DNA of 64,000 bases from a virus (IMGVR_UViG_3300007516_000001), one strand, 5' to 3'; positions 4,016-60,925 are shown, counted from the stretch's first letter. Numbers and translations are program-made. Notes: a model not told the origin generated them from the sequence alone.

Positions 4016-4097
4016 TCTTATTTGATGCCTATTTGAGAACTTCTATGATTCTTCTATATATAGATATGTAGAATAGGACCCGAAATAATAATATGTA

Positions 4098-4148
4098 GGG
4101 TATTTGCATATGTCATAACCTTGATATATATTTGTCTTGTTAATTCAT
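4098..4148 (+). promoter_or_regulatory. Degenerate stem-loop plus promoter cassette, copy 4
   Basis: gggtatttgcatatgtcataacc followed by TAtaTTTGTCTTGTTAATTCAT (4131-4148). A diverged version of the consensus cassette. Confidence 0.5.
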
Positions 4149-4169
4149 TATTCACTTAATACTTCTCGC

Positions 4170-4661
4170 ATGAAGAAATCAGAAAGGTTAGCTCTCGCCC
4201 AAATGGAAGCGTTGATAAAGACCCCTAAAAAGGTCAAGAATAATTCCAATGTTCAAGAGAAATTGGAAGAGGCCACTAAGGACTTAGTAAGAAAGAAAGT
4301 CAAAAAGAAAGTGGCAAAGAAAGTTGAACCGGAAGAAAAAAAGCCTAAATCCGATAAGAGGGTTAGAATTTTCCGTAATCTTGATTATGATAATGCCACT
4401 CGATTGGAGGCTAAAAAGCATCGTGACCAAGTTCGTCTTAAGGTCTTCAAGATTGTTGGACCCTATGCTGCAAAGCGTAGAGCAAATGCCCTTAAGAAGG
4501 ATGCAAGAAATGTAGCCTTTGAAAGTTTCAAAGAGTTATATACCCAAGAATACCTACTATCATTGGATAGAGTAGATGAGGTATTCAGAGGAGGCAATGA
4601 CAACATGAATGATATGGGTTTGTTCTTAGTTGACTTCAAAGCGTACCTGGGCCAGAAATAG
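4170..4661 (+). CDS. Lys-rich hypothetical protein (paralogue of 13302-13694)
   Basis: ATG at 4170 (MKKSERL). The track start at 4137 is non-ATG and lies inside the promoter cassette. The C-terminal FESFKELYTQEYLLSLDRVDEVFRGG...FKAYL matches the C-terminus of the 13302 ORF. Confidence 0.7.
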   Translation: MKKSERLALAQMEALIKTPKKVKNNSNVQEKLEEATKDLVRKKVKKKVAKKVEPEEKKPKSDKRVRIFRNLDYDNATRLEAKKHRDQVRLKVFKIVGPYAAKRRANALKKDARNVAFESFKELYTQEYLLSLDRVDEVFRGGNDNMNDMGLFLVDFKAYLGQK

Positions 4662-4685
4662 TCCAACCCATCAGATTAATGTTTA

Positions 4686-4737
4686 GGGTATGATAGAAAT
4701 GTCATGCCCTTTTCTTATGTTTGTTCTGTTAATCAAT
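4686..4737 (+). promoter_or_regulatory. Stem-loop plus promoter cassette, copy 5
   Basis: Hairpin at 4686-4709 with one G-U pair. TAtgTTTGTTCTGTTAATCAAT at 4720-4737. ATG at 4753. Confidence 0.7.
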
Positions 4738-4752
4738 TAGAACTAAAAGACA

Positions 4753-5037
4753 ATGAGCAAAACAAAACCCGAATCTGTCAAGGCCTTGATTCTTAGACTT
4801 GATAGCCAGAAAAGAAAAACCGAGGATTCAAAGGAAATTACGGAAATTCAAGGCCTCATCAATCAACTTGAAGCCCGACCCAGCAAGAGATGGGCCTACG
4901 GAGAAATATCTACCATAGCTAATGGCTATATATTGAACAAGGATTTAGTTGGCTTACGTAGGTTTCTTACCTCTTGCAAGAACCATCGCGTAGCATACCC
5001 TACCCTAATGGATAAACTCTTAAAAAACCAAAAATGA
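4753..5037 (+). CDS. hypothetical protein
   Basis: 94 aa ORF downstream of cassette 5. Confidence 0.7.
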   Translation: MSKTKPESVKALILRLDSQKRKTEDSKEITEIQGLINQLEARPSKRWAYGEISTIANGYILNKDLVGLRRFLTSCKNHRVAYPTLMDKLLKNQK

Positions 5038-5420: not shown

Positions 5421-5819
5421 ATGAATATTCACAAAGAGAACCACTTCGACTGGTTCAAGGCTTTAAGAACTCAGAAAGTATTGGAGTTACTTAAAGAGAG
5501 ATATTATAATCAGAGCATTGACGGAATATATGAGGGCCCTTCTCAGATAGCCCGATGGATTCTTCTATATGATGCAAATGCCATAGATTTAGCATATCTT
5601 GCTAGTGACTGGCCCACCTGTGCTTGTGGGAATCTATGTGACGCTATACCTAGAAGAGACGGCCAACTCCATGAGCCCGCAGACCTCAGATTAAGAGGGC
5701 TGGGGTCCTCGTTTTATTACGCAGTAGAGTCAGAAGATTGGAATCAGGCTACGGACTTATTGCAGAAGATTGAGGCCCGGTCAGTAGAATTACTAAAAGA
5801 GATATACTCAAAAAAATAA
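5421..5819 (+). CDS. Cys-motif family protein, copy 4
   Basis: 132 aa ORF with MNIHKENHFDWFKAL, WPTCACGNLCDAIPRR and IEARSVELLKE. Confidence 0.85.
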   Translation: MNIHKENHFDWFKALRTQKVLELLKERYYNQSIDGIYEGPSQIARWILLYDANAIDLAYLASDWPTCACGNLCDAIPRRDGQLHEPADLRLRGLGSSFYYAVESEDWNQATDLLQKIEARSVELLKEIYSKK

Positions 5820-5823
5820 ACCC

Positions 5824-6273
5824 ATGTATACTCCGATAAAATTACACAGAGAAGCAGACTTTGACTGGTTCAAAATCTTAGAGAAGCAGGTACTGTTAAA
5901 GGCCGTTTTCCATAGATATTATGACAACGATAACATTCCAGAGCGCATGAAGGATAAAATACTTGAATATAGGAGCCTCTATATGAAACTCAGGAGTGAT
6001 TTGAAGATTAAATCAGGTAATTGGGTTACTTGTGCTTGTGGAAGTCTATGCAATGTTATACCTAACAGATATGGTGTAAAATCAGAAGGCCCCTTAGATG
6101 AAAGATTATACCAACTGGGCAGTCTTTTTCATAGGAATGTATCTGATGAGGAATGGAATGAGGCCATGTGGACTTTAGAAGCAATTGAAATCAGAGCAAT
6201 GGAGTTAATATCTGCAATCTATCCTGGCAGAACTATCCTAAATAACCACGAAAATAAATATGTAGGGGTATGA
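5824..6273 (+). CDS. Cys-motif family protein, copy 5 (most diverged)
   Basis: 149 aa ORF with HREADFDWFKIL, WVTCACGSLCNVIPNR and IEIRAMELI. Its stop codon lies inside the cassette 7 hairpin. Confidence 0.8.
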   Translation: MYTPIKLHREADFDWFKILEKQVLLKAVFHRYYDNDNIPERMKDKILEYRSLYMKLRSDLKIKSGNWVTCACGSLCNVIPNRYGVKSEGPLDERLYQLGSLFHRNVSDEEWNEAMWTLEAIEIRAMELISAIYPGRTILNNHENKYVGV

Positions 6274-6317
6274 TTGGAATGTCATACCCTTTTCTTATAT
6301 TTGTTCTGTTAATCAAT
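6266..6317 (+). promoter_or_regulatory. Stem-loop plus promoter cassette, copy 7
   Basis: Hairpin at 6266-6289. TAtaTTTGTTCTGTTAATCAAT at 6300-6317. ATG at 6326. Confidence 0.7.
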
Positions 6318-16651: not shown

Positions 16652-17632
16652 ATGATTATATTAGGAGTTTGTGGTGGTAATGGAGTATTTCTGCATCCAT
16701 CAAGAAAATATTTGATAGGTAATATTGAACCCCGGAGTTTATTTCATACTAAGGGGGATATGCAATGGCGTTCCAACTTTAAAACTCCTATATCAAAGGA
16801 TGATAAGCCCTTTCGAGGTACACACGTAGATATTATAATCGGAGCTCCGGATTGTGGGCATTCTTCTGTGTTCTCTTACTCACGTGCCAAGAAATTATCT
16901 GAACCTAGTAAAAATGATAGTTTAAAAACATACGTGGATTGTGTTAATGCCTTCAAACCCCATCTGTTCTTCATGGAAAACCTTGAAAAAGGCTTTGAGA
17001 GGATGCTTCTGCATGAGTTTTTTCCCGGTTATTTCTATAAAACTATTATTGGCAGTGTTTCTATATATGGAAATTCCCAAGTTACTCGAAAAAGGGCCCT
17101 ATTAATAGGGTGCAAAGTTGAGGAGCACTTAGAATACTTTAAAAACCCTAAAGGAGTACCTCTTTTTACTTCGGGTGAACTTCTAAAAGGTTGTAAAGCT
17201 GAGGATATAACCCAGGGCCACATAAGAGAGGACATCAATAACACTATTACACTCTATGGAGGCTTCAAAGATACCCTAAAGAACATTAGAAAGGGTTGGT
17301 TAGATAATCCCGATATGCACAAATGGAAAGTAGAAGGTAGAAACTTTACTACAGCCCCGGGAGTCTACATTAATAGGGCTAACCAGTTTCCAAAGACTGC
17401 AAGAAAGGCAAATAGGCAGTTTAATCATTGGGGTCTTACAATGAGTCCTCGAGAATTAGCTAAAATACAAGGAGTACCCGACACATTCAAGATATACATA
17501 GGCCTTGACCCCCTACATTCAACCTATTGGATTAATAAGGGTAGAACTTCAGTAACTAAATGTCCCCCGTACGAAATGGGGGCCTGGATTAAACGTAAAT
17601 GTAAAAAATTATGGCGAACAGAATTTCAATAA
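16652..17632 (+). CDS. DNA (cytosine-5)-methyltransferase-like protein, divergent
   Basis: Motif order is typical of C5-MTases: I LGVCGGNGVF; IV GAPDCGHSS (canonical PPCQ replaced by PDCG); VI FFMENLEK; VIII QVTRKRALLIG; IX SPRELAKIQGVPDTF. Confidence 0.65.
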   Translation: MIILGVCGGNGVFLHPSRKYLIGNIEPRSLFHTKGDMQWRSNFKTPISKDDKPFRGTHVDIIIGAPDCGHSSVFSYSRAKKLSEPSKNDSLKTYVDCVNAFKPHLFFMENLEKGFERMLLHEFFPGYFYKTIIGSVSIYGNSQVTRKRALLIGCKVEEHLEYFKNPKGVPLFTSGELLKGCKAEDITQGHIREDINNTITLYGGFKDTLKNIRKGWLDNPDMHKWKVEGRNFTTAPGVYINRANQFPKTARKANRQFNHWGLTMSPRELAKIQGVPDTFKIYIGLDPLHSTYWINKGRTSVTKCPPYEMGAWIKRKCKKLWRTEFQ

Positions 17633-18303
17633 ATACCCTTACTATGATTATATTAGGGGTTTTAATAATCCTATTGCTGCTCGATAGGTGTAATGATAGG
17701 AAAGTCCTATCTAATTTATCAGACAAGATGGAATCAATATCCATCAATGTTCCTGAGGTAATATTTAAACGTAATTCAGTTGACTCCAGCATCGTTGCTA
17801 TCCAAAAACAAATAATCTTAAACAATCAAGAAGGAAACGCACTAGGGCTTACTAATTTAAAGACTGAATTGGGGGAGTTAAAGAAGATAACGAACAGAAT
17901 AGCCCTCAGAACAGAGTATTTGATAAGTAATGTAGAGAAACCCTATGAACCAGGAACCGTTATTACAGAGCTACCTGATGGCAAATACTTAAAATTACCC
18001 TATTCTACCTCCTTTGGGGACTCCTTATATTCGGTTGGATTTACTCAAACCCTGAATGGACCCCGGTTAGATAGCTTAAGAATATGGGATAAGACCCATA
18101 TAACCCTAGGAACTTTAAAAAAGGGCTTCTTTAAAAGAAGTGAACCAACCCTCTTATTCGAGAACCAGAATAAATATATAACCGGGATTGGATTAACAAA
18201 TTATACCATTAAGTATAAGCCTGCATGGTATGAAACAAGATTATTCAACATGGCTGCAGGAGCCTTTCTTTTATTCGGAGCACAACAAATAACTAAACCA
18301 TGA
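17611..18303 (+). CDS. membrane protein, possible lysis accessory protein
   Basis: 230 aa ORF with hydrophobic helices at the N-terminus (LTMIILGVLIILLLL) and C-terminus (LFNMAAGAFLLFGA). Sits immediately upstream of the endolysin. Confidence 0.35.
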   Translation: MANRISINTLTMIILGVLIILLLLDRCNDRKVLSNLSDKMESISINVPEVIFKRNSVDSSIVAIQKQIILNNQEGNALGLTNLKTELGELKKITNRIALRTEYLISNVEKPYEPGTVITELPDGKYLKLPYSTSFGDSLYSVGFTQTLNGPRLDSLRIWDKTHITLGTLKKGFFKRSEPTLLFENQNKYITGIGLTNYTIKYKPAWYETRLFNMAAGAFLLFGAQQITKP

Positions 18304-50384: not shown

Positions 50385-50691
50385 TAAAGTAGTATGTATT
50401 GAGGACACTATACAACAGAATAAGATTGTTGAGATAAGTTTACACTACCCTAATTGGGTAGTCAAAGGAAAGCATTACACAATTAGACACGTTCTTAAGG
50501 TTATAACCACAGAGGGGTATTTAAAGTTAAGTGTATTATTAGAGGAGATACACAACCCTCAAATAGAAAAAGTTATTCCTGGCCTGTTTGTAGAGCCTAG
50601 GTTTGATGCAGAGAGATTCAGAGAACTCCAAGACCCTCTCGAAGAATCTATACCCGAAGAAATGTCAACCCAAATATCGGAACTCCTATGA
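50371..50691 (+). CDS. hypothetical protein
   Basis: 106 aa ORF with an overlapping start. Confidence 0.6.
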   Translation: MKVGSKVVCIEDTIQQNKIVEISLHYPNWVVKGKHYTIRHVLKVITTEGYLKLSVLLEEIHNPQIEKVIPGLFVEPRFDAERFRELQDPLEESIPEEMSTQISELL

Positions 50692-52124
50692 GAAAAGAAG
50701 TACACTTGACCATCAATAACAATCGGATAAAGATGGAAGGCAACTACGATATACAGAAAGCTGCCTATGAACATTTCAAATTAAAGGACCCAAATGCCTT
50801 CTTCGTAAGGAGGTATATGCAACCAGGTTGGGATGGATTCAGAAGATACATAACCGAAAACGGTTCTTTCAAGTCTGGTTTATTGGAGAAGATATACCCC
50901 TTTTTAATAGAGAGGGGTGATGTGGTAGTTGAGGATTATAGAGATACCAAGACCTGGAAGAAGGATTTAGAAGAGGTAATTAAAAACCTTAACTTAAGAG
51001 AATACCAGATGGAGGCTGTAGCTGCTATCTATAATAACCAAGTAGGAGATATACAACACCCCGTAGGAGTTGTGAAAGCTGCAACGAATGCAGGTAAAAC
51101 ACATATTGCTTGTGGTATATACAAAGCCTTTAGAAAAAAGCCTACCCTATTCTTAGTTAACCGAGCTGACTTATATAATCAGATTAAGAAAGAGATACCT
51201 GAGGTAATGGGTATAGATGAAGTAGGTTTTTGTCAGGGTAAGAACATAAACTTAAACCATACCATAGTAATTGCCATGGTTCAGTCTTTAAAAAGCCGGG
51301 CAGAAGATTCAGTAATTAAAAAATTCCTAGCCAGCATAGAGGTATTGATTGTAGATGAGTGCGACCTTGCAGAAAGTAAAACCTACAAATCAGTTATTCA
51401 GAAGTGTATAAATGCTTGGGTAAGAGTTGGTATGTCCGGTACAATGTATGAGGGTAAACTTGCCAAGCATAAGTTTGTCCATGAGAACCTTAGACAAATA
51501 TTTGGAGAAGTCAGATATGAGATAACGAACCGAGAACTTATTGATAGGGGTCATTCTTCTGAGGTTATAATTAGAATACGCAATGGCAATACCCTTATTA
51601 AAATACCCAATGACTATGAAGGAGAATACCATAGGGGTATTACTATATCGAAGGAGAGAAACAAACAAACCTGGCTTGAAGTCAAGCACGCACTAAAAAG
51701 AGGCCGCAAACCAATCCTTATAGTATGCAGATACCACTTGCATATAAAGAAACTACATAGATATCTTGCAAAAAAACTAGGAGAAGAGAATACGATAGAC
51801 TGGCTACACCCTGGTAAAGGGAAACTAAGGAAGGAAACCCTAGAGAACTTCAAGCAAGGTAAGATTGATGTTTTAGTATCATCCTTAATCCTTAAAAGGG
51901 GTATGAATCTACCTCTAACAGAAACCGTAATAAATGCCGCAGGAGGTGATGACCCTAAAGACCCACTACAAATCTTGGGTAGAGCAATGAGAAAGAAGGA
52001 GGGTAAGAAAGTGAAATACTTTGTTGACTTCATGGATGAGGGCAAGTATTTAAAGAGGCATTCTAAGCATAGACTGGGCTATTACAAAGCCCAAAACTTA
52101 AAAATTAAAATTCTTGGTAAATAA
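50688..52124 (+). CDS. superfamily 2 DEAD/DEAH-box helicase
   Basis: Motif I AATNAGKTHIA; II LIVDECD; III MSGTM; VI QILGRAMR. Confidence 0.85.
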   Translation: MRKEVHLTINNNRIKMEGNYDIQKAAYEHFKLKDPNAFFVRRYMQPGWDGFRRYITENGSFKSGLLEKIYPFLIERGDVVVEDYRDTKTWKKDLEEVIKNLNLREYQMEAVAAIYNNQVGDIQHPVGVVKAATNAGKTHIACGIYKAFRKKPTLFLVNRADLYNQIKKEIPEVMGIDEVGFCQGKNINLNHTIVIAMVQSLKSRAEDSVIKKFLASIEVLIVDECDLAESKTYKSVIQKCINAWVRVGMSGTMYEGKLAKHKFVHENLRQIFGEVRYEITNRELIDRGHSSEVIIRIRNGNTLIKIPNDYEGEYHRGITISKERNKQTWLEVKHALKRGRKPILIVCRYHLHIKKLHRYLAKKLGEENTIDWLHPGKGKLRKETLENFKQGKIDVLVSSLILKRGMNLPLTETVINAAGGDDPKDPLQILGRAMRKKEGKKVKYFVDFMDEGKYLKRHSKHRLGYYKAQNLKIKILGK

Positions 52125-52145: not shown

Positions 52146-52553
52146 ATGAAGAAAAGAACACCCCGTAAAAAACTCAGTAAGAACAAAGAGTTTAAGGATA
52201 TAACAAAACCCCTAGACTTCTCAAAAATAGGAACCCTTGAAGACCCCTGCTTCGGTAAGCACCATGATGTGAAAGCACCTGAATGCGTATCTTGCGGGGA
52301 TTCGGAGTTATGCCTTATTGCGCTCAGTCAGAAAGCCAAATTGAAAAGGGAGAAACTCGAAGAAACTATAACGTTCAAGGACGTAGAGAAAGATATACCA
52401 GATGAGGAGAACCCAACTATACAAGTACCTAAGTTGATTCGTAAGTACAAAAAGAAAGAATACTCCTTAAAGAAAACCCTTAGACTGGTACTAAAGAAAT
52501 TTCCAGACTCGGATAAAGCCTTTGTTACACGCTTATACAAAAATAAAAACTAA
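52146..52553 (+). CDS. hypothetical Lys-rich protein with a Cys cluster
   Basis: 135 aa ORF with CFGKHHDVKAPECVSCGDSELC. Confidence 0.65.
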   Translation: MKKRTPRKKLSKNKEFKDITKPLDFSKIGTLEDPCFGKHHDVKAPECVSCGDSELCLIALSQKAKLKREKLEETITFKDVEKDIPDEENPTIQVPKLIRKYKKKEYSLKKTLRLVLKKFPDSDKAFVTRLYKNKN

Positions 52554-53389
52554 TGGAAGAACAACTAGAAATATTCGATGGCAATGGGTTTGAACTTATG
52601 TATCGAAAGCAGCATGAGTTTATAGAACTCCTAATATCAAAAAGCCAATTACCTGTAATTGAAACCGTAGCTTTACACCTCGAAACAAAAGAATCCCAAT
52701 CCTTTTTCAGAGAGCTCTCAGGTTTTTATGTAGAGGAATTAGTCGAGGCTCGAATAGCCCTAGCAGAATTAGTAGAGCTTAGACATGAAAGAGGCTTTAC
52801 AACAACTCCCGAATTTTTAACTAAACTCGATGGATTCAATGAAGAAATAGCCGACACTTTTTGTTTTGCCCTAGAGCTATTGATATATGCAGGGGTAAGA
52901 GTAAGTGAATTGGAGAGGTATATAGAACATCAGTTTGTGGATGAACTAGGAGATGAATACAAAGCCTCGGGTTATTGGATAGAGGACAATCTACTGGCTT
53001 CAATGTTGCAACTAGCAAGGGTACAGAATATTAGATGGGGTGCGTATCAATTGAATATTACCCGAACAAATGTAACTTTAACCCATGAAGATGATAGTTA
53101 TTTGAATGTTGCTGGAAGAAGATTAAGCCAGGAAGCCTCACCGGTTTTGGATGGCTTAAACTTTCAGGTAATACAAAACCTATACACGTCACTAAACATG
53201 ATGAAGTCTAAATATTGGAGGGCAGAAGAAGTACCCATCAATGAGATTGACTTAAGAAGAAGCCTCTGCACTTGGTTTATGTCATACCTGCAATTGCTGG
53301 ATATGTACGGAGTAAATGAAATGTCAACCCTTAAAAATTATATAAACAAACATGAGAAGAATCTCAACCGGCAAAAAGAGGGCTATTAA
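52553..53389 (+). CDS. hypothetical protein, possible all-alpha NTP pyrophosphohydrolase
   Basis: 278 aa ORF. EELVEA ... EEIAD spacing is reminiscent of the MazG/dimeric-dUTPase ExxE...ExxD metal-binding motif. This is a weak call. Confidence 0.3.
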   Translation: MEEQLEIFDGNGFELMYRKQHEFIELLISKSQLPVIETVALHLETKESQSFFRELSGFYVEELVEARIALAELVELRHERGFTTTPEFLTKLDGFNEEIADTFCFALELLIYAGVRVSELERYIEHQFVDELGDEYKASGYWIEDNLLASMLQLARVQNIRWGAYQLNITRTNVTLTHEDDSYLNVAGRRLSQEASPVLDGLNFQVIQNLYTSLNMMKSKYWRAEEVPINEIDLRRSLCTWFMSYLQLLDMYGVNEMSTLKNYINKHEKNLNRQKEGY

Positions 53390-54344
53390 GCCCGAAGTCA
53401 CAGACAGAGACTCCACAAAAACCCTTATCTTCGATAACCTTCATGAAGCCTGGGCAGGAGTAAATGAATATCTACTTTGTGAAGAGAAAGAGATATGGGC
53501 TAGAGGAGGAGGTATCTATGGGCCAGAATTTTTATCCTATAATAACATGGTTATTGTAAGAGATTGTAGAATGGACCCCGAGTTTGATTTCGGTTATATC
53601 CTAGGCTACTCTGATAAGAAATGGTCAGGTCTTAAGAACAATTACCTTGATGTTGATTACCTAGATTTAGTGAAGTCAGAGATTAATATGCGTCAGGGTA
53701 AGAAAGCGAAAAGCTATAACTATTCATACCACTTTAAAAACTACCACGGTTCAGGTAAGGATTGTTTAATCTCTTTAATATTTACCAAGAGAATTGACAA
53801 CCCAAAACCTATTGTGGTATTCACAGTTAGGGTATCGGAGGTAACTAAGAGATTAGCCTTCGATTTCTTGATGGTTGAGAGAATGGTTGAATATGTATAT
53901 GGCCCCGACCATCAAGTAGAACTTCATTTTATTGCACCCTCATTCTACATTGCAGCAGAAGCGGTTATTATGTATGATAACTACCGAAAACTTAAGAGAG
54001 TATTGAGGCCCTATAAAGGAAAGCTGGGTAGATTTCAAAAGAAGGTATTAAAGACTTTCAAAGTATTCAAGAAACCTGAGGCATTGAAGATGACCTTCAA
54101 GACTTTCTTAAGGTCGGCAATGCAATTACAGAAAGATGAAAATGGATGGCCTGTGTCAGGGGTTAAGTCCTTGAAGGCTAAACAACTTATTCTATTTCCC
54201 GAATCTATATACCCTGATGGCATGGTATCACCTAAAGAAAGGGCCAAGTATAGAAAAGAGAACTCAATAAACACTCGAACTAAAAAAGTAGAGGTAGTAA
54301 ATGAGTTGCCTAAAAAGAAGAAGAAAAAGAAAGTCAAGAAATGA
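53352..54344 (+). CDS. possible thymidylate-synthase-fold protein 1 (highly divergent) with a poly-Lys tail
   Basis: KDCLISLIFTKR...VVFTVRVSEVTKRLAFDFLMV can be threaded onto the ThyA PCH...QRSCDVFLGLPFNIA segment with a 2-residue insertion. The C-terminus is KKKKKKKVKK. Confidence 0.3.
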   Translation: MRRISTGKKRAIKPEVTDRDSTKTLIFDNLHEAWAGVNEYLLCEEKEIWARGGGIYGPEFLSYNNMVIVRDCRMDPEFDFGYILGYSDKKWSGLKNNYLDVDYLDLVKSEINMRQGKKAKSYNYSYHFKNYHGSGKDCLISLIFTKRIDNPKPIVVFTVRVSEVTKRLAFDFLMVERMVEYVYGPDHQVELHFIAPSFYIAAEAVIMYDNYRKLKRVLRPYKGKLGRFQKKVLKTFKVFKKPEALKMTFKTFLRSAMQLQKDENGWPVSGVKSLKAKQLILFPESIYPDGMVSPKERAKYRKENSINTRTKKVEVVNELPKKKKKKKVKK

Positions 54345-55117
54345 TTGCCATAAGAGAGAACACCCTACGTGATGCGATAGCCGAAGTAGAAGAACAACTA
54401 AGAATAAAGGGTTCAATAGTTGCAACAGAATCATGGCAGGGTATTAAACCTCCAAGAGATTTCTATGAGATAAACAACATAGTTATATCTGCACCCATGC
54501 CTACTGATAATAGTTTAGTTAATCTGGTAGGACAAATACAACCTAATTGCCCCTGGGCTAATATACACTTCGATGAAAGAATTTCAGGAAAACCCCTCAA
54601 CCCAGGAGAGTCATATAAACACTGGCCTTTCTATGGAAGAGATAATCAAATTCGCACACAAGCTGAAAAGTTTAGTCACACGTACATGGAAAGATTCTGG
54701 CCCAAGCATGCCGGACAAACCTCAGAAGTATTCCCCAACCGAGGTATTCGATACGACTACGGGGATTTAAACTCGGTGGTCGAGTTAATTAAGAGAGAAC
54801 CACATACAAGACAGGCCTACCTCCCAGTATTCTTTCCCGAGGATACAGGTGCTTCTCACAAAGGGAGGATTCCCTGCACTATAGGCTACCATTTCATCAT
54901 CAGAAATGGACGTTTGAACCTCAATTATCATATTCGTTCATGTGACTACCTCAGACACTTTAGGGATGATATATATTTAGCGGTAAGACTCGCAGAATGG
55001 GTTAGAACCCAAGTGAGTATACCCGAATTATTGTTGGGAGAATTTTGTATGTTTATATCTAATTTGCATATCTTTGACATAGAAATAGGAAAACTAAAAA
55101 ACCATGGCCCAAAGTAA
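54341..55117 (+). CDS. thymidylate synthase-fold pyrimidine (hydroxy)methylase, substrate uncertain
   Basis: REPHTRQAYLPVFFPED, IPCTIGYHFIIRNGRLNLNYHIRSCDYLRHFRDDIY and SNLHIFD align without gaps to ThyA sRRxxxSxWNP, PCH-20 residues-RSCD and the Asn177 region. Confidence 0.6.
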   Translation: MIAIRENTLRDAIAEVEEQLRIKGSIVATESWQGIKPPRDFYEINNIVISAPMPTDNSLVNLVGQIQPNCPWANIHFDERISGKPLNPGESYKHWPFYGRDNQIRTQAEKFSHTYMERFWPKHAGQTSEVFPNRGIRYDYGDLNSVVELIKREPHTRQAYLPVFFPEDTGASHKGRIPCTIGYHFIIRNGRLNLNYHIRSCDYLRHFRDDIYLAVRLAEWVRTQVSIPELLLGEFCMFISNLHIFDIEIGKLKNHGPK

Positions 55118-55538
55118 TAAGAGAGATATAACCTCAATGGAAATTGCCAAATTGATGGGCCAACGTTCAACTTGCAAAAGGTTGAACGTTGGTTGTATTA
55201 TAACCTATGAGGGTAGAATTGTATCATCGGGTTATAATGGACAACCTGCACCCAATGAAAAGCCCTGCACCGAAATATGTGACGTGGATAAACCCTGCAC
55301 AATAGCCACACACGCAGAATCAAATGCAATCCAGTTCCTACGTAAATACCTAGGAGTAGATGAATTTAATTTACCCCTAACCCTATATGTGACTCATGCC
55401 CCTTGTCTTGATTGTGCCCACATAATCCATGAGGCTCGAATTAAGGAGGTAGTATATGAACACCCATATAGATTAAAGGATGGGGTAGACTTTTTAATAG
55501 GTAGAGATATTAAGGTAAGGAGGTACTATGCGGTCTAA
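55104..55538 (+). CDS. dCMP deaminase
   Basis: Zinc-binding motifs THAESNAI and HAPCLDCA, with size and spacing typical of the dCMP/CMP deaminase family. Confidence 0.9.
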   Translation: MAQSNKRDITSMEIAKLMGQRSTCKRLNVGCIITYEGRIVSSGYNGQPAPNEKPCTEICDVDKPCTIATHAESNAIQFLRKYLGVDEFNLPLTLYVTHAPCLDCAHIIHEARIKEVVYEHPYRLKDGVDFLIGRDIKVRRYYAV

Positions 55539-57696
55539 ATCAACCCATCAATTTATCATAGCCAAACACTGGTCAGAAATTAAGGAGGCTGTAAAACATA
55601 CTAAAAAGACAGGTTACTTTAGCCATGACTTTGAAACTAATGCCGAACCTTTTCACTCTGATGAATCTTGGCCCACTATCATAGGTATGTCTTTCCAACC
55701 AGGGTATTCAATTGTTATACCCCTTAAGCATAGTGAGTCGCCCTTCAACAAAGACTACATAAATATACTTGATTACTTAGCCGAGAATCTCATCATCAAT
55801 GAGAAGATAACCAAGATAGGTTGGAACCTGGCATTCGAGGGTAAATGGTGGAAGAAGTATGGATGGGAGATGGTCGGAAGAAATTTCGATGCCATGCTAG
55901 CTAAACACTTATTGGATGAAGAAAGACCCCATGGCCTAGGCAATACAGTTAATGTAATGTTTGATGAATTTGCAGGCTTCAAGGATGATACAGAACTATT
56001 AGCCCGTCAACATGGATGGGGCAACATTCCTTTACAACCTCTAGCAGAACGTAATGCTCTTGACACAGACTTAACTCTGAGATTGATGCTAAGGTTCGAG
56101 AAGAATCTACAAAGCTTGGGCCTATACAGATTATTCAGAAGTTTAGCCGGACCCCTCAGAACAAAAGTATTGAATGACTTAGAATTTAGAGGCATCAATG
56201 TAGATGGCCCATACTTAGAAGCATTGTCTGAATCTTATGTGGGTCGAATAGCTGATGTAGAGGTTCAACTAAGAAAATTTCCAAGAGTCCTGAGATATGA
56301 GAAATCCCGAAAAAGAAAAGTTCTTGTAACCCTACTTAAAGAAATTGAGGAGAAGATAGAGGTAGCAAAAGAATCAGGTAATGACCGAGTAGCTTTGAAT
56401 GCTGAGAAGAAACTAAACCAATACATAGCAGGTAATATAACTACCAAGAAAGACAGAGAGAGATTAGAACCGATAAACTTCGGCAGCACGGTCCAATTAG
56501 CTGACTTCTTATTCTTCAGTCGCAAGGGCCTTAATCTTGATGTTATTAAGTACACAAAGAACAAACAGACTAAGGTAACTTCCGATAGAGCCTCAGTAGA
56601 TGAAGAGGTACTATTACAATTACAGATTACAGATAAATCAGGCTTCATGGAATTACTCATGAAGAGCAGGAGTCTTAAGCAATTGAACTCTACCTATGTC
56701 CAGGGTATGTTAAACAGAAGAACCCAGGACAATATAATCTATGGTAATTTTTTAGTACATGGAACAGTAACAGGCCGTCTATCTTCAAAGGACCCCAACC
56801 TGCAGAACATACCTAGAGGAACTACTGCTGCCGACATCAAGAAAATGTTTATACCTCCTCCGGGTTACTTACTAATTGAGTTCGATTATTCACAGGCAGA
56901 GCTTCGATTAGTAGCAGAGATGGCGCAGGATATTGCAATGATTGAGATATTCCAAAGAGATTACAACATTCACGTGGCTACGGCCTGTAAAATCAATGGT
57001 GGAATAGACCTCTATAACAAAGTCAAATCTATTCTAAAGGATGAGAATCACCCCGACAACTATTTTTGGGAAACTCAAAAGAAATTTGCCAAGACTATTA
57101 ACTTCGGTATTCTTTACGGAGAAACAGAATACAAACTTGCCCAACAATTAGGAGTATCAATCGAAGAGGCAAAAGAATTTATGAATACCTGGTTTGAGTC
57201 ATACCCTCAGGTAACTAAATGGATTAAAGCCCAACATGCTTTTGCCCGAAAGAATGGATATGTTTCAAATGTATTTGGTAGGAGGAGAAGATTACCGGAT
57301 GCAATGTACACCTTCATGGAGGCTAAGAAAGAAGGTATATTGGGCTTCCATTTAGAGGCTATGCGCCAATCAGTTAACGCACCTATACAAGGCGGGTCAT
57401 CCGACTTAACACAGTTCTCTTCGGTAGTTGCACACTCGGAGAGAATAAAAGGAAATCTACCCAAAGACTTCTTGCAGGTATACACAGTACATGATTCCCT
57501 CGGGTATATTATAAAACCCAAGGACGTACACAAAGTAGTACCCATCATGCTCAACATTTGTAATAACCCTGACACAGAAAAGTATTTCGGGTTTCAAATG
57601 AAGAGCGTAAGGATGAAGGTATCTACGGAAGTAGGTAAAAACTGGGGAGAACTAAAAGATTATGATGCTTGGGAGAGATACGAAAAATGGGTATAA
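55528..57696 (+). CDS. family A DNA polymerase with a 3'-5' exonuclease domain
   Basis: Exo I FSHDFETN. Pol motif A FDYSQAELRL, motif B KFAKTINFGILYG, motif C YTVHDSL. Confidence 0.95.
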   Translation: MRSKSTHQFIIAKHWSEIKEAVKHTKKTGYFSHDFETNAEPFHSDESWPTIIGMSFQPGYSIVIPLKHSESPFNKDYINILDYLAENLIINEKITKIGWNLAFEGKWWKKYGWEMVGRNFDAMLAKHLLDEERPHGLGNTVNVMFDEFAGFKDDTELLARQHGWGNIPLQPLAERNALDTDLTLRLMLRFEKNLQSLGLYRLFRSLAGPLRTKVLNDLEFRGINVDGPYLEALSESYVGRIADVEVQLRKFPRVLRYEKSRKRKVLVTLLKEIEEKIEVAKESGNDRVALNAEKKLNQYIAGNITTKKDRERLEPINFGSTVQLADFLFFSRKGLNLDVIKYTKNKQTKVTSDRASVDEEVLLQLQITDKSGFMELLMKSRSLKQLNSTYVQGMLNRRTQDNIIYGNFLVHGTVTGRLSSKDPNLQNIPRGTTAADIKKMFIPPPGYLLIEFDYSQAELRLVAEMAQDIAMIEIFQRDYNIHVATACKINGGIDLYNKVKSILKDENHPDNYFWETQKKFAKTINFGILYGETEYKLAQQLGVSIEEAKEFMNTWFESYPQVTKWIKAQHAFARKNGYVSNVFGRRRRLPDAMYTFMEAKKEGILGFHLEAMRQSVNAPIQGGSSDLTQFSSVVAHSERIKGNLPKDFLQVYTVHDSLGYIIKPKDVHKVVPIMLNICNNPDTEKYFGFQMKSVRMKVSTEVGKNWGELKDYDAWERYEKWV

Positions 57697-57738
57697 CCGG
57701 CAAACTATATACAGAAACAAAACTAAATAAACATAAAT

Positions 57739-58170
57739 ATGGATATCTCAGAACTCGAAAAAGCAACTATTGATAGGAGCAATGTTGTCATGCCCGGCCT
57801 ACTAAATAACATGGCTTTATCTTATTTTACAACAGCCCTTGCAGAAGAAACTGGAGAAGTTTGTGGGGCAGTAAAGAAAATATTAAGGTCCTATGAACCT
57901 GGAGGTATTAAGCCTGAAAAGATAAAGGCTCTAATGGATGAATTTCCGGATATGGCCCATAGTAATATTATGGAATTATATAGAGGTAGATTAGTAGAGA
58001 ACCTGGAAGGAGAAATAGGGGATGTAGTTTCCTACCTAATTTACATCTGCCATAAATCGGGTTTGAATTTTGAACACGTCCTAATTGAGGGCTTTGTTAA
58101 AAGCTCAGAGAAATGGAACTACCCTATAATGTTCGATGTATTAAATGAGAAATTTTGTAAACCTGAATAA
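57739..58170 (+). CDS. MazG-like nucleotide pyrophosphohydrolase
   Basis: 143 aa ORF with LAEETGEVCGAVKK and LEGEIGDVVSYLIYI (EExxE ... ExxD). Confidence 0.65.
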   Translation: MDISELEKATIDRSNVVMPGLLNNMALSYFTTALAEETGEVCGAVKKILRSYEPGGIKPEKIKALMDEFPDMAHSNIMELYRGRLVENLEGEIGDVVSYLIYICHKSGLNFEHVLIEGFVKSSEKWNYPIMFDVLNEKFCKPE

Positions 58171-58173
58171 AAG

Positions 58174-58767
58174 ATGAGTGAACCAACCGAATTTCGGCCT
58201 CTCGTAGGGCCGGATAACAAATTCAAACCCATGAAACAAATATTTGCAGGCTTTGAGATTGAGAAGAGATTTTTAATCCTATCAGTTGAAGAGGACTTTA
58301 CCAAGAACCAGAGTGGGTCCAAGTTATATAACGAAGTTCTTGAAAAGGGAACTCCTATCGAGCAGGGCTACATAACTGATATGGTTCGAGCAAGAGAAGT
58401 CTTAGAAGAGCTTGGAATAGAACTTGACTTTAGACCGAACACGATACGTTTCAGAAGGTATGGTAGCCAATGTATTCTAACCGTTAAGGATAGAAAGGAA
58501 ACCAAGAAGAGAGAAGTAGAATGGGAGCTAGACCCTAAGGTATTCAAGAAGTATTTCAAGGAAACCAAAGGGGCAAGAGTCTATAAGAAAAGACTGGTAA
58601 AGAATATCAAAGGCTTTGATGTCGAGTATGATGGGTTTGTAGATAGATACCTATTACTCGGAGAGATTGAGGTAGATGATGAGAAGCAACTAGCCAAAGT
58701 GCCTAAGCTCTCTACCGCAGATATCACAGGCCAAAAACAATGGACAAATAAATCCCTATCCAAATGA
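58174..58767 (+). CDS. CYTH-domain (triphosphate tunnel metalloenzyme)-like protein
   Basis: N-terminal FEIEKRFLI carries the ExExK signature, followed by alternating charged beta-strand-like segments (RFRRYG, TVKDRKETKKREVEWEL). Confidence 0.5.
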   Translation: MSEPTEFRPLVGPDNKFKPMKQIFAGFEIEKRFLILSVEEDFTKNQSGSKLYNEVLEKGTPIEQGYITDMVRAREVLEELGIELDFRPNTIRFRRYGSQCILTVKDRKETKKREVEWELDPKVFKKYFKETKGARVYKKRLVKNIKGFDVEYDGFVDRYLLLGEIEVDDEKQLAKVPKLSTADITGQKQWTNKSLSK

Positions 58768-58988
58768 GCAAATTTGATGAGGCCCTTAAGTCTGCGACTA
58801 GAGATATTCTTAGGGGGTATAAAAGAATAATAAAGGGTACAATGGAAGTAGCAGTCTTGATAGATAAATTACCACCCGAAAAACACGCTAAGTACCTTCG
58901 TAGAATACAGAAAAAGCTATTACCTCTTATGAATAAAATGGAAGAACTTGGAGCCATAAAAAAATCTGAGGATGACTTACCCTTTTAA
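58764..58988 (+). CDS. hypothetical protein
   Basis: 74 aa ORF with an ATGA overlap. Confidence 0.55.
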   Translation: MSKFDEALKSATRDILRGYKRIIKGTMEVAVLIDKLPPEKHAKYLRRIQKKLLPLMNKMEELGAIKKSEDDLPF

Positions 58989-59008
58989 CCCTAAATAAAT
59001 AAACCAAT

Positions 59009-59668
59009 ATGAAAATAGCATTTTCCGGCTCAAGCGGTTCCGGTAAAACAACGCTCGTTGAATTTGTATCCGAGGTAACAGACTTAAAACATATATCAGG
59101 CTCTGCTGGCGACGTTAAGCAAGAGGGTGATAAAATGTTACTCGATGAAATGTTCAGATACCCAGGGGGTGGCCACGTAGGAGTAATAAGATACTCGGCT
59201 TTGAATCCCGAATATGGAGTAATGAATCAGAAAATCCTGCAAATGAGGAGGGCTCAGATTATAAGAGAGAATGATAATTTTGTAACCGACCGTTCTCCGG
59301 CTGATAATCTTACCTACTTTATTAATCAAGTAGGTTATCATCCTCACGTAACAGATGCCATGACCCAAGAGTTTATGGAAGATTGTTTAAAAGCCTGGGA
59401 GAACTTGGATTTAGTAGTATATGTGAAAGCAGTTCAACCCCAAGCAGTAGAGGTAAACGGTAGTAGAGTTTCAAATAGGTTCTATCAGAAATCTATTGAT
59501 GCCCAATTTGAATACTGGATTAAAAACTACTTTATACCCAATGCTACGGACGGTCCTGCAGTTTTGATTCTTGATTTTTGGGATTTGAACCGAAGAAAAG
59601 CTGCGGTAACTAATATGATTGGAGATATAGAAGCAGGTATTATAAGAAATACACCCTCCCTCTTATAA
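59009..59668 (+). CDS. P-loop NTPase, putative (deoxy)nucleotide kinase
   Basis: N-terminal Walker A MKIAFSGSSGSGKTTLVEF. 219 aa, a size typical of dNMP or nucleoside kinases. Confidence 0.5.
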   Translation: MKIAFSGSSGSGKTTLVEFVSEVTDLKHISGSAGDVKQEGDKMLLDEMFRYPGGGHVGVIRYSALNPEYGVMNQKILQMRRAQIIRENDNFVTDRSPADNLTYFINQVGYHPHVTDAMTQEFMEDCLKAWENLDLVVYVKAVQPQAVEVNGSRVSNRFYQKSIDAQFEYWIKNYFIPNATDGPAVLILDFWDLNRRKAAVTNMIGDIEAGIIRNTPSLL

Positions 59669-60193: not shown

Positions 60194-60925
60194 ATGTCAA
60201 ACGATAAATTGAAAGCCAAACTAAGGAAGAGGCAAGAGGAGTTAAAGAAAGGAGGAGGTAACTATGATTACTTCATCTTTAAGGAAGGAACTACTCGAAT
60301 GAGACCCCTACCTACTCCACCCAATAAAGATTGGGCTTTAGAGATAACCCATTTCTATATTGGAGGCGAAGTCAAAGGGGTAATATCTGCCGCAACCTTT
60401 GGAGAACGATGTGCCCTATATGAATACTGGCAAAAACTAAAGAAGTCCAAGAAAGCATCCGACCAAAAATTTGCAGACCGAATGAGGCCTAAGCAGAAGT
60501 TCATGGTTGCTCACATCAAGTATGAAGATGATAAGGGTAAAACAATTGATGAGAAAGCAGGAGCAAAACCAGCACTACTTCACAAAGGTATGTATCAATC
60601 CCTACTGGACTTTTACCTTGATGATGATAAGGGAGATTTTACAGACCCTAAGACAGGTTATGATATCAAGTATAAGAGAACAGGTTCAGGTCAGATGGAC
60701 ACAGAATATACTCTTCTTGATGCCCGACCAACTAAGTTAGCATCACCCTACTCGAAGAAAACTTATGATATAGAGGCCATGATAAGAGAATTAGTACCCT
60801 CTTATGAAACCTCTGTTTCTTACTTAGAAGATTTCTTAAAGACCTCCAAGAAAGAAGCCGAAGAAAAGGATGAAGATGAGGCTCCAAGAAAGAAGAAGAA
60901 GAAAAAGAAGAGGTCAGACGTTTAA
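60194..60925 (+). CDS. putative ssDNA-binding protein (T4 gp32-like) with a poly-Lys C-terminal tail
   Basis: N-terminal KLKAKLRKRQEELKKGGGNYDYFIFKEGTTRMRPLP...ITHFY parallels gp32 (...GQAVIRFLP...VNHGF). Adjacent to the recombinase gene. Confidence 0.45.
   Translation: MSNDKLKAKLRKRQEELKKGGGNYDYFIFKEGTTRMRPLPTPPNKDWALEITHFYIGGEVKGVISAATFGERCALYEYWQKLKKSKKASDQKFADRMRPKQKFMVAHIKYEDDKGKTIDEKAGAKPALLHKGMYQSLLDFYLDDDKGDFTDPKTGYDIKYKRTGSGQMDTEYTLLDARPTKLASPYSKKTYDIEAMIRELVPSYETSVSYLEDFLKTSKKEAEEKDEDEAPRKKKKKKKRSDV

Follow-up and report, generated by a model that had tools for sequence, protein, structure and literature searches.

A thymidylate synthase-fold gene pair in a phage cassette predicted to make a modified cytosine nucleotide

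The phage IMGVR_UViG_3300007516_000001, from which a 64,000-nt stretch of DNA was analyzed (the window; all window coordinates refer to that whole stretch), carries at 52553-59668 a same-strand run of mostly overlapping open reading frames (ORFs) that we predict to make a chemically modified cytosine nucleotide for phage DNA. Five of its genes are contiguous (52553-57696): a nucleoside triphosphate pyrophosphohydrolase (NTPase), a protein with a predicted divergent thymidylate synthase (TS) fold (ORF2), a TS-fold enzyme (ORF3), a deaminase and a family A DNA polymerase (PolA). The stop codon of ORF2 and the start codon of ORF3 share an ATGA, suggesting that the two are co-translated, and the ORF3/deaminase and deaminase/PolA junctions overlap as well. 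Pathways of this type are already known: a TS with Asp at position 177 (E. coli ThyA numbering, as for all TS-family positions below) accompanied by a PRA-PH protein, a deaminase and PolA is tied to cytosine-modified phage DNA (PMC8670742; bioRxiv 10.1101/2024.12.05.627091), with phage Xp12 as a further case. This published combination supports a first-pass annotation of the window, which had read the cassette as the toolkit of a pyrimidine-replacing phage, and it makes the novelty narrower than that annotation implied. Two aspects nevertheless appear new. By its residues, the ORF3 family fits no characterized product class, with Arg143, the changes L172R and G173H and no C-terminal tail, and modeling suggests that ORF3-type enzymes have a TS-fold partner, the ORF2-like protein, so far undescribed.

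Whether a phage is sensitive to restriction, CRISPR and type IV systems depends on the modifications of its DNA, which are also a source of enzymes for epigenetic sequencing. The interest here lies in an uncharacterized and widely distributed TS-fold pair: the TS clade of ORF3 has more than 4,400 members with an active-site signature unlike that of any enzyme of known product, while the ORF2-type partner is without annotation anywhere. The pair is present in cultured phages such as Mycobacterium phage Muddy, which makes its product directly testable, and knowing that product would bear on host range and phage engineering; Muddy is a phage that has been used therapeutically. We found nothing relevant in the literature on DNA modification in Muddy, FF47, actinobacteriophages or the TS clade of ORF3, and no mention or characterization of the ORF2-like partner or the Arg143/His173 clade in the literature searched, including the two papers of the MetaGPA line; RHFRDD and other motifs sought in paper supplements gave no match. 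At the DNA level the region matched none of 50,697 phage records. The sequence derives from a JGI metagenome contig of 77.8 kb, and the closest database relatives of the window phage are uncultured human-gut phages.

ORF3 is a TS-fold enzyme with a predicted cytosine specificity

ORF3 (54341-55117, plus strand, 258 amino acids) had been recognized as ThyA-fold in the first-pass annotation, and this is confirmed: it matches Pfam PF00303 (E 7.3e-8; 32.3 bits, gathering threshold 24.3) as well as the 'thymidylate synthase' family PHROG 160 (7e-27), and its AlphaFold2 model (pLDDT 89) aligns over its full length with TS-family structures in Foldseek (best E 2.8e-13). The best fold match is 9iqu, the deoxycytidine monophosphate (dCMP) hydroxylase of phage HY126 (TM 0.66/0.77), with the CMP hydroxymethylase MilA at TM 0.69; MilA is also the top PDB sequence match (E 5e-5; profile 1.4e-7). 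The active-site reading of that annotation holds residue by residue. R199-S-C-D202 begins exactly 20 residues past C179, the Cys of the P-C motif, which is the spacing of the TS superfamily. D210 occupies the position of E. coli N177, and HMMER pairs it with the MilA Asp and with the one introduced in the L. casei N229D mutant (1njc), both with the single ORF3 sequence and with a 43-sequence profile; the Asn that would have contradicted the assignment was seen in neither. The Arg pair that binds the phosphate of deoxyuridine monophosphate (dUMP), at positions 126/127, is reduced to a single Arg, R157-Q158.

Searches returned 4,431 relatives of ORF3 at E <= 1e-10, and we scored residue conservation in 92 family members drawn from phage records and IMG/VR loci. 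Conserved residues include the equivalents of Cys146, Arg166, Asp169 and His207. At position 177, 91/92 members have Asp, and 91/92 likewise have Asp at position 169 (D202 in ORF3); position 147 (T180) is Thr or Ser in 90/92, and position 143 (Arg176) is Arg in 90/92. Positions 126/127 are Arg-Gln in the family, which also carries L172R and G173H, read in register with E. coli R166-N177. Beyond the His207 equivalent only 9-21 residues follow (14 in ORF3), against 63 in the TS of Xp12. In an alignment with enzymes of known product, the dUMP hydroxymethylases M6 gp58 and ViI 060c have Asp143 and Asn177, T4 gp42 has Asp143 and Asp177, and the Xp12 TS, which makes 5-methyl-dCMP, has Asn143 and Asp177; all four keep Gly173. 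The E. coli ThyA and T4 gp42 sequences in this alignment serve as illustration only, the residue mapping resting on the HMMER alignments.

Published rules for the TS fold assign dCMP specificity to N177D, hydroxymethyl transfer to L143D/E and 5-hydroxylation to D169N (PMC13326640). Applied to positions 177, 143 and 169 of ORF3, they point to a cytosine-nucleotide enzyme outside the known product classes. A canonical ThyA is contradicted by D210 and T180 in place of Asn177 and His147, by R157-Q158, by the lack of a closing tail and by NCBIfam scores of 18-40 bits against cutoffs of 108-327. ORF3 shares Asp177 with the T4-type dCMP hydroxymethylases and lacks their acidic residue at the L143 position (Arg176); it shares Asp177 with the Xp12-type dCMP methyltransferase and differs from it in having no ThyA-like tail and in being only 27% identical over 90 amino acids. 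The D169N signature of the 5-hydroxy-dCMP synthases is absent from both ORF3 (D202) and ORF2 (E163). Asp at position 177 also sets ORF3 apart from the dUMP hydroxymethylases, whose companions 5-HMUDK and aGPT-Pplase had no Pfam match among the scanned ORFs. The gene context is that of the MetaGPA cassettes, with an Asp177 TS within ~3 kb of a deaminase and with a PRA-PH-type NTPase and PolA nearby. A metagenome protein of 409 amino acids, P0209, is a natural fusion of a dCMP-deaminase domain to an ORF3-family TS-like domain that is 50% identical to ORF3.

ORF2 is a probable second TS-fold protein

ORF2 (53352-54344, plus strand, 330 amino acids) had been proposed as a second, more divergent ThyA-fold protein with Asp at the same position, a proposal now supported by structure prediction and conserved motifs rather than by sequence statistics. 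It has no match in Pfam or NCBIfam, and its sole library match is PHROG 34294 'unknown function'. Its AlphaFold2 model is confident (pLDDT 90.4), and the 50/50 best Foldseek matches in the PDB belong to the TS superfamily, led by 9iqu, T4 dCMP hydroxymethylase and MilA (probability 1.00, best E 5.6e-5), at a modest TM of 0.41/0.59. In the two models a beta-hairpin-helix carrying C138, R160, E163 and D171 of ORF2 mirrors that of C179, R199, D202 and D210 of ORF3, which would make these residues the counterparts of C146, R166, D169 and N177. An hhalign comparison of ORF2 with the ORF3 family is not significant (Prob 1.3%); its alignment nevertheless falls in the Cys/Arg/Glu/Asp register.

ORF2 has about 140 close metagenomic relatives, in which W34, Y86, K90, W91, N97, Y98, C138, R160, R167, D171 and R177 are invariant, and ORF2-like proteins keep the pattern xCL...R[AST][ST]E...D in 79/79 sequences. 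An exhaustive profile search of 1.84 billion representatives recovered only 202 clusters; the family is small and isolated at the sequence level. We rejected the alternative that ORF2 is the aGPT-Pplase that usually accompanies TS in M6-like phages, because ORF2 has no Pfam match and its predicted fold is that of TS and not helix-hairpin-helix. The called start of ORF2 overlaps the NTPase gene by 38 nt (53352-53389), and its first ~22 residues have low model confidence and are unaligned in homologs. Its C terminus is a poly-Lys run, KKKKKKKVKK; a similar Lys run closes a gp32-like protein at 60194-60925.

The pair is conserved with its neighbors across phages

Three cultured phages, Muddy of Mycobacterium (gp49-gp44), PMBT14 of Pseudomonas and Serbin of Serratia, have their genes in the order Tmk, dUTPase/NTPase, 'hypothetical', TS-like, deaminase, PolA. 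The 'hypothetical' proteins in this order are ORF2 relatives with the same Cys, Arg, Glu, Asp pattern, and hhalign joins ORF2 to the Muddy gp47 group (Prob 99%, E 2.8e-18) and to the PMBT14 gp48 group (Prob 95%, E 3.4e-8). In the Muddy locus (L003), gp45 (5756-6298), annotated 'hypothetical', is a dCMP-deaminase-family protein (Pfam 2.5e-18) and gp47 (4090-4983), also annotated 'hypothetical', is an ORF2-like TS-fold protein, suggesting that Muddy holds the full predicted cytosine-modification cassette. The cassette is conserved together with PolA in metagenomes and across phages of three host groups, actinobacteria, proteobacteria and clostridia.

We sampled IMG/VR twice, picking 80 loci via ORF3 and 80 via ORF2. 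The full cassette is found in roughly half of the loci picked via ORF3; the others, mostly contigs of 118-434 kb, have a TS-like gene with no ORF2-like gene within 7 kb. Where the search started from ORF2, an Arg143/Asp177 TS-like gene lies immediately 3' in 76 of the 80 loci, the other 4 being truncated or unclear, and wherever downstream sequence exists an ORF2-like gene is never without a TS-like gene. The deaminase is missing from a gut-phage subgroup. In the human-gut relative MT121964 (L001, 9055-17228), two tandem ORF2 paralogs precede a TS-like gene, IspD (1.4e-26), LicD (8e-39) and PolA; IspD together with LicD points to a hydroxymethyl base that is decorated with a phospho-alcohol. 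The PolA ORF of this relative is ~370 amino acids longer than the window PolA, and tblastn aligns it in two pieces; judged from its translation, the extra segment is a candidate intein that includes an HNH-like part. Another arrangement is seen in L025, L034, L041, L058 and ~35 other IMG/VR loci, which have an ORF3-family gene, on contigs of 118-434 kb, with no ORF2-like gene, deaminase or PolA nearby; neighbors in loci of this type include a metallophosphoesterase, an MGS-like protein, RNase HII and a GMP-reductase-like protein.

Neighboring genes encode a nucleotide-pool toolkit

The flanking enzymes listed in the first-pass annotation were all recovered with Pfam and PHROG. Upstream of ORF2, a plus-strand gene at 52553-53389 encodes an all-alpha NTP pyrophosphohydrolase of the dimeric dUTPase/dCTPase-like, PRA-PH-like kind (Pfam dUTPase_2 3.3e-6, 27.9 bits against a cutoff of 22.9; PRA-PH weak; PHROG 12184 4e-12), which may convert canonical dCTP, and dUTP, to the monophosphate. 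Downstream of ORF3 on the same strand lie a dCMP-deaminase-family zinc deaminase of minimal type (55104-55538, 144 amino acids; Pfam dCMP_cyt_deam_1 3e-20; 6e-21 against the 138-amino-acid deoxycytidylate deaminase of PDB 4p9c) and PolA with its 3'-5' exonuclease domain (55528-57696; Pfam DNA_pol_A 1.2e-79, exo1 8.6e-10), whose gene is directly 3' of the cassette in related loci as well. They are followed, also on the plus strand, by a MazG-like NTP pyrophosphohydrolase (57739-58170; Pfam MazG 9e-5, 23.1 bits against a cutoff of 22; PHROG 229) and a P-loop dNK/Tmk-like kinase (59009-59668; Pfam dNK 4.4e-6 and AAA_28 4.1e-6, each scoring at its cutoff; 'thymidylate kinase' PHROGs 2107 and 761). 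The kinase gene stands 3' of PolA in many loci of this lineage, and its product may be the deoxynucleoside monophosphate kinase for the modified nucleotide. Among ~40 scanned ORFs of the window we found no ThyX, canonical ThyA, dihydrofolate reductase (DHFR) or glycosyltransferase.

Comparison with known modification systems

The closest published parallels come from MetaGPA. Virome contigs shown by experiment to carry modified cytosine encode TS homologs with Asp177 and a changed residue at position 147, these being the top discriminating positions, and PRA-PH and dCMP deaminase domains are found along with these homologs (PMC8670742). On modified contigs, 70% of deaminases have a TS no more than 3 kb away, together with PRA-PH and PolA, and for one deaminase the selective conversion is of 5-methyl-dCTP into dTTP, the reaction proposed for Xp12 (bioRxiv 10.1101/2024.12.05.627091). 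Like the window, these cassettes, including the mSCD-B5 contig, have an Asp177/non-His147 TS a few kb from a PRA-PH-type NTPase, a deaminase and PolA. Unlike in the window, no second TS-fold protein is mentioned in the MetaGPA-line papers, and the TS enzymes tested there, described as Xp12/PaMx74-like, are of another clade than ORF3. The 5-methyl-dCMP pathway of Xanthomonas phage Xp12 itself shares with the window an Asp177 TS adjoining a deaminase, PolA in the same region and modification at pool level, and differs in its ThyA-length C terminus, G173, Asn143, a DHFR gene next door and the lack of an ORF2-like gene.

The T4 system (gp42, gp56 dCTPase, gp1 kinase, Cd) resembles ORF3 and its surroundings in Asp177, Thr147, the short C terminus and the set of NTPase, kinase and deaminase, and the models of ORF2 and ORF3 both match T4 dCMP hydroxymethylase structures. 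However, gp42 has Asp143, the RR pair and G173 where ORF3 has Arg143, RQ and His173, and T4 pairs it with no TS-fold partner. For ORF2 as well as ORF3, the best structural matches (9iqu, 9iqc) are flavin-dependent 5-hydroxy-dCMP synthases (RB69 gp48, DLP3 gp80, HY126 AfhB; PMC13326640), which share Asp177 and a short C terminus with ORF3 and differ in D169N and L143E: ORF3 has Asp202 and ORF2 Glu163 at the former position, and L143E is absent here. MilA shares Asp177 and Thr147 with ORF3 but works in a bacterial antibiotic pathway on a ribonucleotide, with Asp143 and a long C-terminal domain. The dUMP hydroxymethylases of SPO1, M6 and ViI have the TS fold and nearby kinase, NTPase and deaminase genes, but they combine Asn177 with Asp143 and come with linked 5-HMUDK and aGPT-Pplase genes, features that are not seen here.

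We also considered Stenotrophomonas phage AXL3 as a carrier of the ORF2-ORF3 pair and rejected it: its TS belongs to another, Asp143/Asp177 clade, and its gp29 is Tmk-like and not ORF2-like. The AXL3 locus (L093, 1051-4251) holds an NTPase, a Tmk-like gene, the TS and a deaminase, the Asp143/Asp177 of the TS being the T4-like hydroxymethylase signature. AXL3 had been a candidate because its DNA is resistant to all restriction enzymes whose sites contain G/C.

A predicted pool-level pathway and its alternatives

We favor, with moderate confidence, pre-replicative synthesis of a C5-modified deoxycytidine nucleotide at the level of the nucleotide pool, by a single, translationally coupled block of genes that includes the phage's own polymerase. 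The observed folds, residue identities, residue conservation and gene linkage lead us to infer the substrates, the product, the role of ORF2 and incorporation into DNA as follows. The all-alpha NTPases (52553-53389, perhaps with MazG) would cleave canonical dCTP to dCMP and so exclude dCTP. Cys179 of ORF3 would attack C6 of dCMP, with Asp210 and Thr180 selecting cytosine, and a one-carbon group would be placed on C5. ORF2, with its own Cys, Arg, Glu and Asp, would act on the ORF3 product or as a hetero-oligomeric partner. The P-loop kinase and the host nucleoside diphosphate kinase would yield the triphosphate, PolA would build the modified nucleotide into DNA, and the deaminase would turn part of the dC/modified-dC pool into the matching uracil- or thymine-type nucleotide.

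The case for cytosine is that Asp177 and Thr/Ser147 are common to the ORF3 family, T4 dCMP hydroxymethylase, MilA and the Xp12 TS. The first-pass annotation had left the substrate as dCMP or dUMP; Asp177 favors the former, and since the experimentally supported dUMP hydroxymethylases M6 gp58 and ViI 060c keep Asn177, the latter finds no support. What ORF3 adds to dCMP is a more tentative matter. The C-terminal tail of TS serves active-site closure and hydride transfer. A non-reductive, hydroxymethyl-type group is our leading candidate, held at somewhat below even confidence, because ORF3 has no such tail, no DHFR lies nearby, and IspD and LicD stand between the TS-like gene and PolA in the human-gut relative, implying a hydroxyl acceptor. 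A methyl group is possible, if doubtful, and draws on the tested homologs that make 5-methyl-dCMP and on the deaminase linkage; some other chemistry, suggested by the remodeled folate pocket and the presence of a second enzyme, seems no easier to credit than methylation.

Several points weigh against this pathway. No published product for any member of the ORF3 clade was found in the literature searched. Position 143 is a near-invariant Arg, where all known hydroxymethylases have Asp or Glu (PMC13326640), and of seven deaminase-linked Asp177 TS homologs tested, five made 5-methyl-dCMP (bioRxiv 10.1101/2024.12.05.627091). The folate contacts L172 and G173 are Arg and His, so that cofactor and chemistry may differ. 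The link of ORF2 to TS rests on predicted structure, with the modest TM and the non-significant profile comparison given above. A C5 cytosine methyltransferase (MTase) of the phage's own would be pointless if every C were already substituted, which speaks mildly against complete replacement. Finally, ~43 loci have an ORF3-family gene with no ORF2-like gene within 7 kb, and ORF2 is therefore not universally required. Dependence is one-way, ORF2-like genes needing a TS-like gene and not vice versa, in keeping with an accessory enzyme that works on the product of the TS-like protein, or with a facultative partner.

The tested homologs and the missing acidic residue at position 143 speak for complete replacement of cytosine by 5-methylcytosine as in Xp12, which we regard as rather unlikely here. 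ORF3 would then reductively methylate dCMP, the kinase and host nucleoside diphosphate kinase would supply 5-methyl-dCTP to PolA, ORF2 would be accessory, and the deaminase would turn part of the 5-methyl-dC pool into thymidine nucleotides, replacing a thymidylate synthase. Xp12 follows the same logic, with its deaminase adjoining an Asp177 TS; the deaminase mSCD-B5 prefers 5-methyl-dCTP; and the tight deaminase linkage, along with the fusion P0209, would be sensible if deamination gives dT. Against this stand the low identity of ORF3 to the Xp12 TS, the loss of the ThyA-type tail that the Xp12 enzyme keeps, a folate pocket changed by L172R and G173H, and a cassette with no DHFR near it, unlike that of Xp12; ORF2 would also be left unexplained. 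The adjacent and at times fused deaminase could also serve a phage that does not modify its DNA in this way and uses the cassette only to boost or reroute thymidylate, from dCMP through 5-methyl-dCMP to dTMP or from dCMP to dUMP for the host ThyA, its virion DNA being canonical apart from site-specific methylation by the MTase. The separate MTase gene is in keeping with this, as is the fact that unusual DNA is unreported, in the literature searched, for Muddy and many cassette-bearing SEA-PHAGES genomes. We consider it improbable: modified contigs are specifically enriched in Asp177 TS, deaminase, PRA-PH and PolA (co-localization 70% vs 6%), pool replacement typically involves two NTP pyrophosphatases plus a kinase and a polymerase dedicated to it, and the gut-phage subgroup lacks a deaminase, so dT production cannot be the core function.

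Thymidine replacement of the SPO1/M6 type, in which the deaminase supplies dUMP and ORF3 makes 5-hydroxymethyl-dUMP, would account for the deaminase, the dUTPase-like NTPase, the kinase and PolA (PMC8989533), and SP-10 is among the best cultured-phage matches of PolA. It is, however, contradicted by the near-invariant Asp at position 177 and the Thr/Ser that replaces His147, by the Asn177/Asp143 of M6 gp58 and ViI 060c, and by the lack of 5-HMUDK and aGPT-Pplase matches among the scanned ORFs, and we give it very little credence. Within the favored cytosine pathway, a bolder version would make the ORF2-like proteins a new catalytic branch of the TS fold that acts on C5-substituted dCMP, or a hetero-oligomer with the Arg143/His173 enzyme, and so an undescribed phage cytosine modification or cofactor use. 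We hold this to be unlikely as it stands; if true, the new branch would occur in Muddy-like, PMBT14-like, gut and freshwater phages.

Other features of the window

A superfamily 2 helicase (50688-52124, plus strand; Pfam ResIII 6e-22 and Helicase_C) and a small conserved protein (52146-52553, plus strand, 135 amino acids, no Pfam match), whose homologs occupy the same place in related loci, mark an upstream edge of the cassette that is conserved within this lineage, and precede the NTPase in most related loci. Between the MazG-like gene and the kinase, the plus-strand gene at 58174-58767 encodes a CYTH/triphosphate-tunnel-like protein (197 amino acids; PHROG 6660 'unknown') that matches PDB 2fbl (E 2.8e-4), the structure of NE1496, titled hypothetical protein, which we take to be a CYTH/triphosphate-tunnel protein; a triphosphatase-like gene would be a puzzling member of a nucleotide-pool cassette. 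The divergent C5 cytosine DNA MTase noted in the first-pass annotation is indeed encoded elsewhere in the genome (16652-17632, plus strand; Pfam DNA_methylase 2.8e-12). It is followed by a 230-amino-acid ORF (17611-18303) with no Pfam or PDB match; PDB sequence searches with the NTPase and the kinase likewise gave no usable match. The MTase has motifs I, IV, VI and VIII as GVCGGNG, APDCG, FFMENL and QVTRKR, and a DNA C5-MTase is an odd possession for a phage predicted to replace C before replication.

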